From IMG/VR virus record IMGVR_UViG_3300017769_000001, positions 64,001 through 128,000 of that record: a stretch of 64,000 bases of DNA; one strand, given 5' to 3'. Of the stretch, positions 11,411 through 59,653 are shown in pieces. The translations under genes and the position numbers were made by a program. Under the pieces are notes generated by a model. It ran no database searches, was not told the origin of the DNA, and was given only the letters and a program-made list of their open reading frames with translations. Within the stretch, counting starts at the first letter, position 1, and each line of letters starts with the position of its first letter. This DNA comes from a virus.

Positions 11411-11941
11411 TTATTTCAGAGTTTCATCCAACCAAACGATACATTTGATGAATTTCACTCCATTGGAGTGTTGGATTGTGACGTCACCAAAGACTTCTCG
11501 ACACTCGTCAAGATACGACTCCAGAGGCATACGATTCTGCCAGCCATCCCGAGTTTCACCCGCTTGGGATGACCCGTCTCCAGCATAAACAGTGATCACG
11601 ACATAACCACCGTTGCGCATCATTTCTCTCGCTTGTTTGAGAACCGAAATTCTCTCTTCACGATCTTTGATGACATTAAGCACGTTGCTGATAGTCGTCA
11701 CGTGCGGTGGATGTCGTTTCAGCAATTCCAGACAAACTTCATTGGTAAGTCTGGGTTGGTTGTGGGGGTCATAACCGAAGTATGCGAATCCATTATCCTC
11801 GCACCACTGCTGGAACTTTGCAGGTTTTCCGCAGCCAAGATCGAATACTCGCGGTTTGGTGACTTCACCAAAATTCAACACTGACAACGCATGGCGAATC
11901 TTGGGTAACTGGTTTCTTGCTGTTTTCTTTGAATCAATCAT
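11411..11941 (-). CDS. class I SAM-dependent methyltransferase
   Basis: VFDLGCGK motif I, YDP, SNVLNVI motif; start set at MIDSKK. Confidence 0.8.
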   Translation of the reverse strand: MIDSKKTARNQLPKIRHALSVLNFGEVTKPRVFDLGCGKPAKFQQWCEDNGFAYFGYDPHNQPRLTNEVCLELLKRHPPHVTTISNVLNVIKDREERISVLKQAREMMRNGGYVVITVYAGDGSSQAGETRDGWQNRMPLESYLDECREVFGDVTIQHSNGVKFIKCIVWLDETLK

Positions 11942-11952
11942 GGTAGCACCTG

Positions 11953-12309
11953 TTAACGAATGTCCCAGCAATCTGACGTACTCTTGTCAACTTCCAGAAC
12001 GTATGGCTTCAATTCGGATTGAATGCGTTTCGCTTGCCTGATTCGGCAGCGATCGCTGTCAGTACAAGAAATCAAGCCGCTTCCTAGACGATAGTAGACG
12101 TCCAGCAGCTCGGCGTCATTCCGGATTTCAATGACAGTCTTATTCCGCTCCAGAATCTGATACGTATGGTGTTCTGGACTGATGACATTCGGATGCGTTG
12201 GATCGGCTTTGAACTCGGCAACGGCATCCCAGTATGCCGGTTCTTCGGAATCACTGAAAGTTTCAATGAAATCGGCAGTAGCCTTGACTTTGATAGGATA
12301 GTTGTTCAT
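11953..12309 (-). CDS. hypothetical protein
   Basis: 118 aa, GGGAAAAGGTATG RBS. Confidence 0.7.
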   Translation of the reverse strand: MNNYPIKVKATADFIETFSDSEEPAYWDAVAEFKADPTHPNVISPEHHTYQILERNKTVIEIRNDAELLDVYYRLGSGLISCTDSDRCRIRQAKRIQSELKPYVLEVDKSTSDCWDIR

Positions 12310-12563
12310 ACCTTTTCCCTTTTCTGACGAATGTACTCTTTGATAACAGCAGAAACTGCTTCAGTCACGTCCCTGCCGTCTTTATCTACCGCGTACAGAA
12401 CGGAACCACACTTGTTATCAGCCGGAACCGCACGGATGGCGATGAATGCGCGACCTTTGCTGTTACGGACGTGATCAACACTATATCCGCGAATGACGTT
12501 GATAGTCGCCCTGATAACTTCACGGCGCACTTTCGGATGATTCAGTGACGTTTTAGTGATCAT
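12306..12563 (-). CDS. hypothetical protein
   Basis: start set at the cassette RBS (MITKTSL). Confidence 0.7.
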   Translation of the reverse strand: MITKTSLNHPKVRREVIRATINVIRGYSVDHVRNSKGRAFIAIRAVPADNKCGSVLYAVDKDGRDVTEAVSAVIKEYIRQKREKV

Positions 12564-12643
12564 ACCTTTCCCCTTTCCAACTTTCATTTCAAAACTTCAC
12601 TACGTGTGCCACTGTATCAACAATGGCACCGATAGTCAAGTCT
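12561..12643 (-). promoter_or_regulatory. repeated early promoter-stem-loop-RBS cassette, copy 1
   Basis: TTGACT-17nt-TACAGT with inverted repeat around -10, then GGGGAAAGGTATG; near-identical to 14327 and 15692 copies. Confidence 0.9.
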
Positions 12644-12647
12644 CCTG

Positions 12648-12833
12648 TTAAACTTTTCGAGTAATCAGGTTTGCGTTGCGAACCCGCTCACACACGGACT
12701 TGCGACCGTTCTTCATACCCTTTCGGGGGATGACGACGTCAGTATAGCCGTTCGGAGCATTCAGCGGAGAATCCGCATACTTGCCAAGCGGGTACACTTG
12801 TTCACCAGTAGATTTCAGTACGACTTGTTTCAT
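12648..12833 (-). CDS. hypothetical protein
   Basis: 61 aa, TAATG coupling. Confidence 0.65.
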   Translation of the reverse strand: MKQVVLKSTGEQVYPLGKYADSPLNAPNGYTDVVIPRKGMKNGRKSVCERVRNANLITRKV

Positions 12834-14329: not shown

Positions 14330-14412
14330 ACCTTTTCCCCCTTTCCAACTTTCATTTCAAAACTTCACTACGGGTGCCACTGTATCAACAATGGCACCGA
14401 TAGTCAAGTCTT
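14327..14412 (-). promoter_or_regulatory. repeated early promoter-stem-loop-RBS cassette, copy 2
   Basis: direct repeat of 12561-12643. Confidence 0.9.
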
Positions 14413-15694: not shown

Positions 15695-15771
15695 ACCTTT
15701 CCCCTTTCCGACGTTTCAAAACTTCACTACGGGTGCCACTGTATCAACAATGGCACCGATAGTCAAGTCTT
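15692..15771 (-). promoter_or_regulatory. repeated early promoter-stem-loop-RBS cassette, copy 3
   Basis: direct repeat of 12561-12643 with a short change in the leader. Confidence 0.9.
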
Positions 15772-16732: not shown

Positions 16733-16751
16733 AACTTTTCCCCTATACTAT

Positions 16752-17027
16752 TCACACACTACGCATGATTACAAGATTGATTACGACACAATCGCCCGCC
16801 ATGCCGTCGACGTCGTTTGTGTGACAGAATTCTGATTCCGCGCCCTCGCTGACAGACCAGTGATAGTGTGTACCTCCAAAGGCGTCTCTAAGACTTTCGG
16901 CGCGTTCTTCCAATGCGTCGACCGATTCAATTTCATCGTCGGTCATACCTGTTTCGTCTCCGTTTACGATACTGCAAAGAGCATACGAAGGCACAGTAAA
17001 CTCGATATTTTCCAGTACTTCTGTCAT
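16752..17027 (-). CDS. small acidic hypothetical protein, first gene of early operon
   Basis: start set at MTEVLE after GGGGAAAAG. Confidence 0.7.
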   Translation of the reverse strand: MTEVLENIEFTVPSYALCSIVNGDETGMTDDEIESVDALEERAESLRDAFGGTHYHWSVSEGAESEFCHTNDVDGMAGDCVVINLVIMRSV

Positions 17028-17044
17028 AACTTTTCCCCTTTCCA

Positions 17045-17686
17045 ACATTGACAGCACACTTCGGAGAGCTGCCGCCTAACATAAGCGGCAACCCGAAATC
17101 AACTGTTTTGGCTAACTTGCTCGTTAACAGCTTGCCACACTGACACTATTTCCCGCCTATGAGATACACCAGACTGCCAGCGGGAATAGCCGATATAGTG
17201 ACAGTCTGGCTGAATTCCGCGTTTCAGCCTTCAGCGGATAGTCTCGAACCGGTTTTGTGTGTTAGGTCATTTACAAGGACACACGAACCCCTTGAACGTA
17301 AATTTACAGTTTGGGTGCATTGAAATCATACACTTACACTGAAGGCTGTTACCGCCTGAGAGTGACATTCTCCGGTTAAGAGACTATCCGCCAGCATGTA
17401 AGATCGACACCTTTTCAGGCGCAACTGTGCCACGCTAACACATTTGCCTTTACTCCGTTCCAGTTTGTTACCGGTGGCCGCAACTATAACAGAGCCAGAA
17501 TCATTAGGTTACTAAAAGCGCCAAAAACTCACTTTCACTTTCGCCGACATTCATGGCCTAGCAAGTACTAGCCGCACGTTCTGAGTGCGATACAGTCCTA
17601 GACGTAACTCCCCTTCGGGAATGGGATTCCACCGTAGTGATACCCGTTGTCTCCAAATTTTTAAAGAACGTTGGCGTTTCAGCCTG
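17045..17686 (-). ncRNA. candidate large structured RNA / leader (~620-640 nt)
   Basis: no ORF >=60 aa; downstream of a consensus promoter; multiple long helices, two crossing helix pairs, G-U pairs favouring the minus strand. Confidence 0.6.
17655..17685 (-). promoter_or_regulatory. boxB-like hairpin + boxA-like antitermination site 1
   Basis: GGC-TGAAAC-GCC then CGTTCTTTAAAAATTT just after the predicted start. Confidence 0.65.
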
Positions 17687-17692
17687 TGAACC

Positions 17693-18133
17693 ATTATACA
17701 GCGTTGGTTCCCGTTGTCAAGTTTCGTTTTAAAGTTTTTTCGGTTTCCCGAAAAATCGAATCTTGATTTTGCCGTTTCAGTCTATCAGACTTGATCTGTC
17801 GTCGTCAATGCTTTTTTTGCCTTTTTGCGCGGTCTGTCGTTTGGATAACATGCCGAAACAGTACCCTATCCTAACCTGCCACCTGATAACTATTATGTAT
17901 TGTCAGGTAGTGCAAAACGACTGGCATTGATAATTTAAGCCTAGTCTAATCGAATGATCTGGCTATGTCAAGATCAAAACGAAACTCAATTTTTAAAGAA
18001 CGGTGCCGTATTGGCATGGCTTCACTTTACTGAAAGCCGTTTCCCTTGTCAAGCGATTTTTTGCTTAACTCCGCTGGCGTTGTTTGCCGCGTTTCCATGG
18101 TTCCCATGATACGGATTTCAAAACGAAAGTCAA
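17693..18133 (-). promoter_or_regulatory. array of five tandem leftward sigma70 promoters
   Basis: TTGACA-16-TATAAT (17720-17693); TTGACG-18-TAGACT (17808-17779); TTGACA-17-TAGACT (17971-17943); TTGACA-17-TAAAGT (18052-18024); TTGACT-16-TATCAT (18133-18106). Confidence 0.8.
17988..18017 (-). promoter_or_regulatory. hairpin + boxA-like site 2
   Basis: TGCC-AATAC-GGCA then CGTTCTTTAAAAATT. Confidence 0.65.
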
Positions 18134-18152
18134 AATTTTTATTTCCCTTTCA

Positions 18153-18193
18153 AATCAACAACTTACAACGATACGTCACGTAACTTATTGATT
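18153..18193. promoter_or_regulatory. two inverted IHF-consensus sites
   Basis: AATCAACAACTTA (18153-18165, +) and AATCAATAAGTTA (18181-18193, -) both fit WATCAANNNNTTR. Confidence 0.65.
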
Positions 18194-18360
18194 TTCTTAG
18201 AAAAAATAATTTTAAAATTTTGCGTTTTTTCTGTCCGGGGTTCTTGCTTCATTTATATGCAAATCGTGGGCGCGATTTTCTCAAAATTTTGTTTGGTGGT
18301 CAAATTAATTTTAGTTAATTTTTGTTAAGTCTTTGTTTTTATTAGGGATTTTCTTTTTCC

Positions 18361-18429
18361 TGTGGGTTATCCACTGGGGTAAATCTTGGTGTGTGGATAA
18401 GTGTGTAACTGTGGAAACCCTGTGTATAA
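18361..18429. promoter_or_regulatory. cluster of DnaA-box-like 9-mers
   Basis: TGTGGATAA 18392-18400 and TGTGTATAA 18421-18429 match TTATNCACA; TTATCCACT 18367-18375 has 1 mismatch; weaker TGTGGAAAC 18410-18418. Confidence 0.65.
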
Positions 18430-18447
18430 GTGTGTTTTCGCGGGGGT

Positions 18448-18490
18448 TTCACACTACACTTCACACTACACTTCACACCACACTTCACAC
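18448..18490. repeat. 12-bp tandem repeat TTCACAC(T/C)ACAC, ~3.6 copies
   Basis: read directly. Confidence 0.9.
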
Positions 18491-18615
18491 GAGAAGATTC
18501 CTCGAATAATCGGCGCTTCGCGCCGACCTCAAATCGTTGCACAGATGTCCTTCATGTGTCAGCAAAATGACGCTTCCTACTAAATAAAGGGTATCAAACT
18601 AATACAAATTTTGCT

Positions 18616-56045: not shown

Positions 56046-58181
56046 ATGAGCGTTTCAGACAACATTGATTACATTCAGAACGGCGAAAACATTGATGAGG
56101 TTGTTCTGAATCGTCCTTCACAGCAACTAGCGGAGGCACTTGACAGTCTTTCTCTGGCAGATGCCATCAAGAAAGAATCCACTATGATGTTGGACTTCGC
56201 AAACAATGAATATCGTTTGTACGAAGGTGATGATGGGCAGACGTGGCTACCGTTTGAAGAAGTCATGGAAGTTAACCGTGCTTCAGTGGCAACTTATATC
56301 GATGGTACTGGGAGACTACGGTATGCAGGCATCAATGAGAAACGCATTGCTTATGACGGTAAAGATCCGGTTGGCATTCTTGCTGAAGAGCAGCGTACGA
56401 ATTATCTGAGAAACTCCGAAAACTTTCTCGCCAATTGGGGTGCTGGACGCGCATCAATTGAACCATACGCAGCTATCGCGCCAGATGGTCGAAAAACTGC
56501 TGCAAAAATTACCGCAACCGAAAATAACGCATCTGGTTACTATATCTACCAATCTGTGTCATCTCCAAGCCCCGGATCCGACTTCTGTTTTTCTTTCTTT
56601 GTTAAGCCGCAACCGTCTTCAAATTATTGCTTGGCGATTGTTTATGATGGTGGTTCAAATGGTTGCCGTCAGTGGTTTGATCTTGAAAATGGAGTTCCAG
56701 CCACCACAAACGTTTTTGGTGCAGGGTTTTCTGTTATTTCTTCAGACGTTGAATCACTTGATGACGGGTGGTATCGATGCAGTATGGTTGTTACTACAAG
56801 CGGCAGTACAATTCGCCCCCAAATATATCCAACTTCTGGTACATCTCAAGGGCAATATAACGCAGTTGCTGGGGATTATGGTTATGTATGGGGTGCTCAG
56901 TTGGAAGCCGGATCCATCCCAACCAGCTACATCCCATCAACTGATACATTCACCAGCAGGGCATCAGCAGCGACGTATTTTGATTCTGAAGGCATTCTTC
57001 GTACTGCTGGGTACAATGTCGCTCGTGATAATGCTTACGGATTTGATAACCGTGGTCGTATTGTTCCTATTGGACTATTGCTGGAGCCACAAAGAGCTAA
57101 CTTGTTTACGTGGAGTGAAGATGCCACCACCGGCACTGGTACTGTAACCACAATCAATACAAACTCTGCAATAGCTCCAGACGGAACCATGACTGCTGAC
57201 GATATCGTCGACAATTCGACTGGAGAATCTCTATACTGGCAGAAAACACGGTTCGGTGCTACGGCTACAGAATATGCTGCTGGTTCTTATTCTGGATCTC
57301 TTTTCCTCAAAAAGAAAGATGAGAGATATGTTCGGGTAAACTTCCAGATTTATGGGACATCAACTTTCGCCGCAAACCTTGATATTGACTTCGACGAAAA
57401 AACAGTAACTCCAATCGCCGATGCCAAGATCGACTACGAATGGCTTCCGGGTGATTGGGTTCGGGTGTCATTGTTAGTAACAACTACGACAACAAACCAA
57501 TATTGTCGTTTGCTTGTATACCCGGCAATGTCATCTGGAGGATATAACGCGGCTCTGACAGGAGGGGTTTATGTCTGGGGTGCACAGTTTGAAGCTGGAG
57601 AATATGCAACTTCTTACATTCCAACCGAAGATGCCGAGACTACTCGGTCTGCCGACATCGCGAACTCGGCACAGAGCACTCGTATTGTTGATGATGTGAA
57701 GCGTAAACTGACTTCCGAATTTTCTGATAGTTCTGATGCTACCATTATTCTGGAGTTCAAATATTACGGAGTTGATGCTGGTTCATCAGCTTATGGTATT
57801 TTCACTATCGGCGGCGAAGACCCATCTGTAGCCGATGACAGATTCTTCGAAGTTATTGTTGCCGGTAATACGAAACTTCTGAGAATTCAAATGCCCGGTG
57901 CAACACCAGCTTCATACGACATCAGAAATATTCTGTTTGGAGAAACGGTTCGTCTTGCGGTTACTTGGAATTCTCAGGGGTCTGCTGTTTCTATAAACGG
58001 CGAACCAGTGATTACATCAACCGCAACTCCACAATCAATTCAGAAATCGAAATACACTTACATGCGGTTTACTGATCTGATCGGAGAGGCGATTCGTCGT
58101 ACAAACATCGGAATGAAGACTGTGATGTACACTCCAAAGTATACGGATCCTTCAAAACTGAGTGGACTATCGGCGGTGTAA
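56046..58181 (+). CDS. tail fibre / spike protein with duplicated beta-sandwich module
   Basis: N-terminal NGE...NRP; two ..N....SE...WGAQ.EAG...TSYIP units. Confidence 0.75.
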   Translation: MSVSDNIDYIQNGENIDEVVLNRPSQQLAEALDSLSLADAIKKESTMMLDFANNEYRLYEGDDGQTWLPFEEVMEVNRASVATYIDGTGRLRYAGINEKRIAYDGKDPVGILAEEQRTNYLRNSENFLANWGAGRASIEPYAAIAPDGRKTAAKITATENNASGYYIYQSVSSPSPGSDFCFSFFVKPQPSSNYCLAIVYDGGSNGCRQWFDLENGVPATTNVFGAGFSVISSDVESLDDGWYRCSMVVTTSGSTIRPQIYPTSGTSQGQYNAVAGDYGYVWGAQLEAGSIPTSYIPSTDTFTSRASAATYFDSEGILRTAGYNVARDNAYGFDNRGRIVPIGLLLEPQRANLFTWSEDATTGTGTVTTINTNSAIAPDGTMTADDIVDNSTGESLYWQKTRFGATATEYAAGSYSGSLFLKKKDERYVRVNFQIYGTSTFAANLDIDFDEKTVTPIADAKIDYEWLPGDWVRVSLLVTTTTTNQYCRLLVYPAMSSGGYNAALTGGVYVWGAQFEAGEYATSYIPTEDAETTRSADIANSAQSTRIVDDVKRKLTSEFSDSSDATIILEFKYYGVDAGSSAYGIFTIGGEDPSVADDRFFEVIVAGNTKLLRIQMPGATPASYDIRNILFGETVRLAVTWNSQGSAVSINGEPVITSTATPQSIQKSKYTYMRFTDLIGEAIRRTNIGMKTVMYTPKYTDPSKLSGLSAV

Positions 58182-58357: not shown

Positions 58358-59653
58358 ATGGCAAAGTATATCGTTCACAAGTTATCGAAGAATATCAAGG
58401 CAACAACTCAGGACATCGAAAATGGTGTTTCTGGTAAGTTTGCTGATGCTTCTGTTATTGGTGCCTATTTTGAAAATGTTTCAACAGCTGCTCTCGAAGG
58501 CATTGGCGATATTGTCATGCTACGAACAAATCAGAATGCAACGGGTTATCTGAAATGCGATGGTTCCTTATTTCTTGACTCCGAGTACCCGGAACTTGCA
58601 GATCTCTTGAAGAGTAGAGTTGAACAAGGCGTCCACAATCCTTTCACAAGCCAATTGGTATCTGTATCGAATGCAACTGCATCCGACGCTGGAAAGCATA
58701 TTGCAATATCCCGAAACGACGAGTTTGTCGCAGTGACCAACGCGTTTGGCGGCGACCTTCTAGTTTATCAGACATCGGATTGGACATTGTTAAGTTCTAC
58801 GTTAGAGCCTGTTAATGCTGCTGTCAACGCCGTCGAGTTTTCTCCCACGCAGGATATCATGGTGTCAACCAGAAATGGACAGGACGTCACAACTTCAGGA
58901 TTCGCTGTTTACGACACAAACACATGGGCGAGAACCGTCTATAACTTCCCATCGGGATACGAAACAGCTGTTCCTATATATTCGTCGTTCAGTGGCGATG
59001 GTCGCTATCTTGCAATCACCATGGCACTTAACGATACCCTGATCTATGAGACTGAAAATTGGACGTTGGTTCACACATTAACGTCTGGCATCGTATCCCA
59101 GAGAGAATGTTCATACTCTCCAAATGGAATTTATCTGGCAGTCTGCGGCACTAACCCTAACTCCGTAGAAATATACGAAACCTCAGAGTGGACTTTGGTG
59201 GCTTCCGAGACTTACGCCAACGCGGTCGATGCTATTTCATTCTCTCCTGACGGAAGGGAGATCTTCGTATGCTATGGTAACTTACTACAACAATACAGGA
59301 TGGATGAGGGGGCATTTATTCCAGCAAGAATTTACACGGGGAATTACCCAAATTCCGTATCATACGCTCCGGATTCTTCGTATGTATTCACGTCATCAAC
59401 CACAGCACCTTATCTCAATGTGCTGTCGAATCAGGAATACTCCAATTCACTGCCGCAACCGCCAGCCGCTGCTCGTTATGTGAGGGTGTCTCCGAAAGGA
59501 AAGTACGTTGCTTATATCGAGAGTAATTACGGATTGCGAGTTCGTATGATTCAAGAAGACGTTCCTGCTGGTTATACCCGACTGCCAGACTTCCCGATAC
59601 AGAAGCAAGGAACAATAACATTACATCCGATGATCAAAGCCTCCCTGCAATAG
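58358..59653 (+). CDS. tail-collar + WD40-like beta-propeller protein 1
   Basis: IGD...CDG...YPELA collar motif; FSP.G repeats. Confidence 0.8.
   Translation: MAKYIVHKLSKNIKATTQDIENGVSGKFADASVIGAYFENVSTAALEGIGDIVMLRTNQNATGYLKCDGSLFLDSEYPELADLLKSRVEQGVHNPFTSQLVSVSNATASDAGKHIAISRNDEFVAVTNAFGGDLLVYQTSDWTLLSSTLEPVNAAVNAVEFSPTQDIMVSTRNGQDVTTSGFAVYDTNTWARTVYNFPSGYETAVPIYSSFSGDGRYLAITMALNDTLIYETENWTLVHTLTSGIVSQRECSYSPNGIYLAVCGTNPNSVEIYETSEWTLVASETYANAVDAISFSPDGREIFVCYGNLLQQYRMDEGAFIPARIYTGNYPNSVSYAPDSSYVFTSSTTAPYLNVLSNQEYSNSLPQPPAAARYVRVSPKGKYVAYIESNYGLRVRMIQEDVPAGYTRLPDFPIQKQGTITLHPMIKASLQ

Follow-up and report, generated by a model that had tools for sequence, protein, structure and literature searches.

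A boxA-bearing and very probably structured non-coding RNA ahead of the predicted early operon of a T4-like phage

Described boxA leaders and large phage RNAs

The boxA sequence functions as a signal for Nus factors (PMC5725501). In the Escherichia coli rrn leader, tandem strong promoters with A-rich upstream elements are followed by a small hairpin, boxA and a long structured untranslated RNA (PMC5725501, PMC6614797), and the antitermination complex contains NusA, NusB, NusE, NusG, SuhB and S4. The nut sites of phage lambda carry boxA and then boxB, a hairpin to which the phage N protein binds. In the early region of phage T7 (promoters A1-A3, boxA and the RNase III site R0.3), boxA stands behind the early host promoters (PMC3709561, citing Savalia 2010). 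Another group of RNAs, namely GOLLD, ROOL and OLE, comprises multi-domain molecules of several hundred nucleotides that are often phage-borne and whose function is little known (PMC12286853). Non-coding RNAs of such size and intricacy are seldom met with, and most have no assigned function; the RNA described here is a new sequence family from a T4-like phage.

The locus resembles the rrn leader in having tandem strong promoters with A-rich upstream elements, a small hairpin, boxA and a long structured untranslated RNA, and by this analogy Nus binding is predicted. It differs in that the RNA behind boxA is no rRNA, fits no Rfam model and enters protein-coding early genes, and no supported leader-trailer helix was found. 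Its hairpin precedes boxA, which is the rrn order and the reverse of the nut arrangement. With T7 it shares a boxA just behind strong early promoters for the host polymerase and a non-coding, hairpin-bearing leader ahead of the first early gene, although the two phages belong to different families and site R0.3 is a feature of T7. To our knowledge, the T7 leader is shorter and has not been described as a conserved multi-domain fold. In size and in multi-domain architecture with long-range helices, the RNA recalls GOLLD, ROOL and OLE; it differs from them in lacking a covariance-model match and in its apparent place as the 5' leader of an mRNA rather than as a free-standing gene by tRNAs.

The phiEco32-like coliphages have the same architecture, that is, boxA followed by a long gene-free stretch. 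In phiEco32 (L035, 72787-74730), genes 124 and 125 are separated by 1.9 kb that contain no gene. Four perfect boxA sequences occur there on the minus, transcribed strand (~73620-74274), and the next ~830 nt are again gene-free. The bodies are nevertheless not homologous, and a podovirus stands here against a T4-like myovirus. A search of phiEco32 with R1, our covariance model of the central domain of the RNA, gave a best E of 0.26 on short fragments (cmsearch, filters off), while nhmmer with the full alignment found nothing and blastn matched boxA only. By sequence comparison, the RNA is therefore a separate family with the same layout as in phiEco32, in an unrelated phage group.

No Rfam 15 family matched the analysed window (64,000 nt) at the gathering score, and none matched positions 17037-17686 even at E<=10. 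ROOL, GOLLD, OLE, tmRNA, RNase P, group I and II introns, 6S RNA and riboswitches were covered by this Infernal check, which the preliminary description of the locus had proposed. A 15-bit group I intron match at 17737-17979 was dismissed, as it lies upstream of the promoter nearest the RNA, in a segment that varies between relatives.

The locus, its promoters and its relatives

The source record is a 148.7-kb virus with terminal repeats, and the window corresponds to its bases 64001-128000. The neighbouring genes (portal, gp21-type protease, gp23, RNase H, Dda-type helicase, gp68-like core protein and rIIB) identify the phage as T4-like. The second-longest ORF-free gap of the genome, at window positions 17058-18615, houses the RNA. 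Read on the minus strand, the gap presents an origin-like part, five sigma70-type promoters, approximately 650 nt and then the first early gene. We delimited the RNA at 17037-17686 (minus strand, ~650 nt), from a transcription start placed by means of the -10 box of promoter P5 to the base preceding the first start codon. This codon and its ribosome-binding site (17034-17050, minus strand) belong to a gene for a 94-aa DUF6926 protein that starts at 17036.

As the preliminary description had claimed, the ORF listing contained no frame of at least 60 aa between promoter and ribosome-binding site; there were none in the whole of 17058-18615, and the largest frames within the RNA had 54 aa on the plus strand and 47 aa on the minus strand. 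A conserved reading frame was sought among the relatives described below and none was found. The candidate small ORFs (33-54 aa) are ruled out as coding by indels of 1, 2, 12 and 17 nt and by the loss of one candidate start codon, which speaks against the objection that the region might be translated as small ORFs.

The promoter that had been noticed ahead of the RNA is P5 (17720-17693, minus strand), which reads TTGACA-16-TATAAT and matches the sigma70 consensus at 12 of 12 positions. Only one other perfect match, heading a tRNA operon, occurs in the 148.7-kb genome, and the identity of P5 across all relatives, including the partial copy L012, is 97-100%. P5 is the last of five leftward sigma70-type promoters at 18133, 18052, 17971, 17808 and 17720 (~440 bp span), with P1 to P3 spaced 81 bp apart. 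P2 has its own hairpin and a second, identical boxA at 17991-18001 (17991-18052 with the promoter, minus strand), and its transcripts are predicted to read into the RNA. L002 differs in the segment that separates P3 from P4 (~17810-17935, including a hairpin at 17875-17912), which it has in replaced or shortened form. A search of the leader revealed no terminator-like site, and neither a terminator nor a strong promoter was found between the RNA and the first gene. The RNA would sit in the most strongly promoted early transcript of the phage.

Homologues of the flanking proteins were used to reach contigs in other assemblies, yielding six further copies of the RNA from independent metagenomes. 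Five are full (L002, L026, L027, L028 and L030) and one, L012, comprises the first 355 nt; together with the window, seven copies are known. The helicase, gp68 and origin-like parts of L012 share 60-65% identity with the window. Identity jumps at the upstream element of P5, reaching 100% for P5 and 95.9% for the RNA. In L002, the RNA is 93.5% identical, compared with 78.6% for the next gene. However, the RNA of L027 and L030 (84%) is more diverged than the adjacent gene (91%), and for this reason part of the conservation island in L012 may be due to recombination, not constraint. L026 has no DUF6926 gene, and its RNA abuts the second gene directly. Since the first two genes in the window have an identical ribosome-binding sequence, GGGGAAAAGTTATG, this loss (L026 3960-4003, compared with window 16733-17050) looks like recombination between the GGGGAAAAGTTATG repeats. 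Judged by the mosaic identity and the gene loss in L026, promoter and RNA form a module that is exchanged between backgrounds by recombination and can do without its downstream neighbour.

Searches elsewhere were negative. The RNA had no blastn match among cultured phage records and no DNA match in IMG/VR or the JGI metagenomes; exact and gapped DNA patterns from its invariant parts had zero hits in viral, metagenome and genome contigs, and scans of viral contigs with single proteins found no relatives. Model R1 found nothing in the whole IMG/VR records of five T4-like relatives. Two sets of loci were rejected: those of P0013 (L009-L011) belong to an unrelated phage, and L003-L006, with a 51% relative of the second gene, have another context and no boxA. 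A more distant relative, L014 (gp68 43% identical), has a syntenic 830-nt ORF-free leader behind a perfect promoter (11838-12669) that folds with a z of -4.95 and carries a perfect boxA at ~+480 and a boxA with two mismatches at ~+105. This leader was rejected as a homologue, since the covariance model, nhmmer and blastn all failed to reveal homology; what it has in common with the RNA is the perfect boxA and a few short words, some of them reordered. In these searches, then, no homologue appeared beyond a narrow phage clade. Together with the Rfam result, this agrees with the earlier view of the RNA as undescribed, except for its boxA part, which is a known Nus-factor signal.

Fold and compensatory changes

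For the whole RNA on the minus strand, the folding energy is -224.3 kcal/mol, and dinucleotide shuffles average -196.5 +/- 6.4 (z -4.3); the plus strand gives a z of -2.4. Divided by domain, z is -4.7 for the central 160 nt, -4.2 for the 3' 196 nt and -1.2 for the 5' 294 nt. Eight coding controls ranged from -0.4 to -2.7, which leaves the central and 3' parts outside this range and the 5' third within it. Folding no better than shuffles, which had been named in advance as an argument against a functional RNA, is therefore seen in the 5' third and not in the RNA as a whole; yet it is this 5' third that has the highest sequence conservation.

We aligned the seven sequences, which are of about three types, so that the compensatory changes, which are few, derive from three or four lineages. 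RNAalifold predicted 204 pairs in 31 helices, and 98.1% of 1306 pair cells stay paired, the structure being predicted from the same sequences that test it. The alignment of homologues revealed nine two-sided compensatory pairs, compared with 3.4 +/- 1.3 when the 3' letters were shuffled (0 of 500 shuffles reached nine) and 0-2 when the partners were slid by 1-3 columns. A good consensus fold is obtained on the minus strand only: its consensus minimum free energy is -196, that of the reverse complement -159, and G-U cells (165) far outnumber A-C cells (3) in the structure, in line with the preliminary remark that mismatches resolve as G-U on the minus strand. The fold is very probably under selection at the RNA level.

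From 5' to 3', a cluster of hairpins (17558-17658, minus strand as for all features below; helices 3-9) includes a C(UACG)G hairpin at 17629-17640 and a CCC-GAAG-GGG hairpin. Most of its pairs are invariant, and the one-sided changes are all wobble-compatible. The next domain (17394-17557) is closed by the long-range helix 17543-17557/17394-17408 (helix 10), in which six pairs vary on one side only and remain paired through wobble; in hairpin 11, one pair appears as U-G, C-G and U-A. L027 and L030 have deletions of 17 nt and 12 nt within this domain, where a variable hairpin is lost in two relatives; two peripheral elements are cleanly deleted in these two sequences.

The central domain (17233-17392; z -4.7) is closed by a 19-bp helix (helix 16) pairing 17372-17392 with 17233-17252. 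Four of its pairs are switched: C-G to U-A, U-A to C-G, A-U to G-C or G-U, and again C-G to U-A. Around the 3' strand of this helix, the variable positions among 82 columns are the four compensating partners and one other. Within the domain, L027 and L030 have exchanged a G-C pair for C-G in a local hairpin, AGGC-GGUAACA-GCCU (17343-17357; helix 18). Further downstream lie a stem-loop and H-type pseudoknot (17146-17210), made of a 12-bp stem (17199-17210/17168-17179; helix 26) that is 100% paired with one U-G to U-A change, and of pairing between loop 17180-17189 and 17146-17156. Four relatives lack one base on either side of this pairing, and the matched losses leave the pseudoknot in register. 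A long terminal hairpin (17051-17106; helices 30-31) stands directly before the ribosome-binding site and carries three two-sided compensatory changes in L026. It was rejected as an intrinsic terminator, as no U-run follows it.

All features listed in the preliminary description occur where it placed them, and most of the structure that it proposed reappears in this fold. The perfect 12-bp inverted repeat 17234-17245/17380-17391 is present (chance alone would give ~0.013 perfect 12-mers in a 650-nt sequence, from ~2.1e5 pairs of positions at 4^-12 each) and, with its extension 17247-17252/17372-17377, makes up the 19-bp helix with its four compensated pairs. The 11-bp near-perfect inverted repeat 17169-17179/17199-17209 corresponds to the stem that is fully paired in the relatives, and the pseudoknot, the C(UACG)G hairpin and the terminal stem (17060-17097, within the hairpin with compensatory changes in L026) were likewise recovered. 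The proposed crossing helix 17348-17359/17415-17425 was not: it has 7+4 bp in the window, but 3 of 11 pairs are broken in L027 and L030 by the same substitution that is compensated in the local hairpin 17343-17357. Of the "multi-pseudoknot" character claimed earlier, one pseudoknot is thus supported. Two further candidates were discarded. A third perfect complement of 10 bp (17225-17234/17339-17348, ~0.2 expected) is broken by substitutions that are compensated in the local hairpin, and a helix closing the 5' and 3' ends near boxA and the ribosome-binding site (helix 2) is broken in L002 and L026. The broader claim of a large functional RNA finds support in the conservation, the compensatory changes, the strand asymmetry and the lack of a conserved ORF, and we consider it very probable that 17037-17686 encodes a structured non-coding RNA that is under selection.

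The boxA cassette and the role of the RNA

At the 5' end, a small boxB-like hairpin, GGC-UGAAAC-GCC, was read from the sequence at 17673-17684 (minus strand), adjoining boxA on its upstream side. Its 3-bp stem (GGC/GCC) and 6-nt loop are invariant in all copies, which puts it beyond the reach of covariation. The boxA itself, GTTCTTTAAAA (17659-17669, minus strand), is a perfect fit to GYTCTTTAANA, the gamma-proteobacterial consensus (PMC5725501). The minus strand of the window has perfect boxA sequences at 17659-17669 and 17991-18001, two matches where 0.35 would be expected in the window, and the genome holds three, all on the minus, transcribed strand. At both P5 and P2, 23-24 nt separate the -10 box from boxA, and a hairpin stands before boxA.

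Cassettes of promoter and boxA, with starts predicted from the promoters, are present in L002, L012 and L026-L028 as well as in L015, L016 and L019, three IMG/VR T4-like relatives reached through the gp68-like protein. The latter have one to three cassettes each (L015 at 6775, 7083 and 7372; L016 at 6917; L019 at 6685, 7162 and 7416), directly downstream of the gp68-like gene and syntenic with the window. Early transcription guarded by boxA thus seems general in this T4-like group, for which the literature searched contains no description of boxA. The first early gene of these three relatives follows only ~130-330 nt after the cassette. Since they share the cassettes and have such short leaders, the 600-nt body is, on the present comparison, a clade-specific addition and probably not needed for antitermination. 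We regard the boxA as a likely working, Nus-dependent anti-Rho signal, with good though not overwhelming probability. It is also likely that ordinary boxA and Nus factors, rather than the large fold, provide the antiterminator. The cis-acting antiterminator suggested in the preliminary description would therefore apply to the first ~30 nt (hairpin and perfect boxA) but not to the 600-nt fold. The composition of the RNA with regard to Rho sites (G/C 1.28) is like that of the surrounding genes, and a count of GGA motifs of the CsrA type found no enrichment.

The explanation that we favour, at about an even chance, is a leader guarded by boxA and Nus factors whose body acts on the early message. 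Host RNA polymerase would initiate at the perfect P5 and at the four weaker promoters upstream; approximately 17-27 nt into the transcript, hairpin and boxA would recruit NusB/NusE and other Nus factors, as in rrn and T7. The elongation complex would then withstand Rho and be able to reach the early genes beyond the 600 untranslated nucleotides, and the Nus-bound complex may also help the RNA to fold, as the rRNA complex does. Our best guess is that the body would remain on the early message and act there, perhaps as a 5' platform that resists nucleases or has a regulatory role. The sequences themselves show the lack of coding capacity, the conservation, the strand-specific fold with its compensatory changes, and a boxA that relatives retain; where transcription starts, that Nus factors bind, that Rho is resisted and what the body does are the parts of this explanation that we infer. 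In this explanation, the RNA would form the 5' part of the immediate-early transcript of an uncultured T4-like phage; that the body works while attached to the message has an even chance or slightly less. What speaks for a leader is that neither a terminator nor a cleavage site is apparent, nor a promoter dedicated to the genes downstream.

The body could instead be an RNA in its own right, a possibility to which we give clearly less weight. It would represent a new class of large phage RNA, protected by boxA, made in bulk in the first minutes of infection and acting in trans on a host or phage target, either after release by processing at the terminal hairpin or while still attached. A gene-like module is suggested by the size of the body, by loops that never vary, by the fact that relatives with the same promoter and boxA cassette do not have it, and by its mobility with the promoter, which has carried it into a background of 60-65% identity. 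It was kept in L026 despite the loss of the downstream gene, all copies share an invariant 60-nt stretch that includes predicted loops, and compensatory changes preserve the shape of the terminal hairpin. In size and long-range-helix architecture, it is nearer to OLE, GOLLD and ROOL (PMC12286853) than to cis regulators. Against this stands the continuity of the operon, as no terminator or separate promoter divides the RNA from it.

Quite unlikely, and a weaker candidate than a body acting on its attached message, is a body that is itself the antiterminator, a put-like fold that modifies RNA polymerase and renders it processive over the 17-kb early operon. The fold is conserved and heads a long leftward operon with few strong internal promoters, as such an element might. 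However, the 5' end already has a canonical boxA, relatives make do with boxA and a short leader, and terminator-like sites downstream in the operon number 17 against 16.1 in shuffles. The RNA-only antiterminators that we know of are all under ~150 nt, and the fold is larger than these.

We consider it very improbable that there is no functional RNA and that the sequence was conserved through recent phage exchange or a role at the DNA level, with incidental folding. The mosaic identity, the lower conservation of the RNA than of the neighbouring gene in L027 and L030 and the ordinary folding energy of the 5' third would agree with this; but compensatory changes match each other over a distance and in a strand-specific manner, the two strands of the pseudoknot have corresponding indels, and peripheral hairpins are lost cleanly.

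The stretch at 18140-18615, directly upstream of the promoter array, is origin-like, with DnaA-box-like words (TTATCCACA and near matches) and an AT-rich tract, and it contains GT-rich tandem repeats at ~18440-18500. Within this stretch, blastn similarity to the distant relative L014 (11217-11270) is confined to these repeats. RNAs that act in replication have precedents in the R-loops of T4 oriF and oriG and in ColE1 RNA II. Least probable of all is that our RNA primes or activates this region, for although the region lies immediately upstream and its GT-rich repeats are the one part common to L014, all five promoters fire away from the AT-rich tract, so that the RNA is not made across it, selection acts on intramolecular RNA pairing, and transcription away from an origin needs no 600-nt fold.

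Returning to the boxA-guarded leader, our comparison suggests that these T4-like phages may rely on the Nus-factor complex to keep polymerase going through a long untranslated RNA, and possibly to fold that RNA as well. As the layout recurs in phiEco32-like phages and its boxA part in T7, early promoters, boxA and a big fold may form a recurrent and overlooked strategy of lytic phages. We also put forward, tentatively and as a doubtful extension, that the phage borrows the antitermination and chaperone complex of the rRNA type to make and fold a trans-acting body. If this is true, the body would be directed at a host component, for instance the ribosome, a nuclease or a defence system, and the place behind the boxA cassette, ahead of the first early gene, would be a general expression site for large RNAs, filled by unrelated large folds in the clade of the window, in L014 and in phiEco32-like phages.

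Two minor observations concern other promoters of this genome. The sequence TTGACT-17-TACAGT, preceded by TG, occurs in three copies inside the early operon (15738-15766, 14379-14407 and 12611-12639, minus strand), which may be a phage-specific class of internal promoters. The other perfect sigma70 promoter, at genome positions 59248-59277, heads an ORF-poor leader of ~1.5 kb before 19 tRNA genes, in which Rfam recognised no family besides tRNAs. The third boxA of the genome, at position 57625 (L034 ~6126, minus strand), lies inside this tRNA operon, just after tRNA-Gly.
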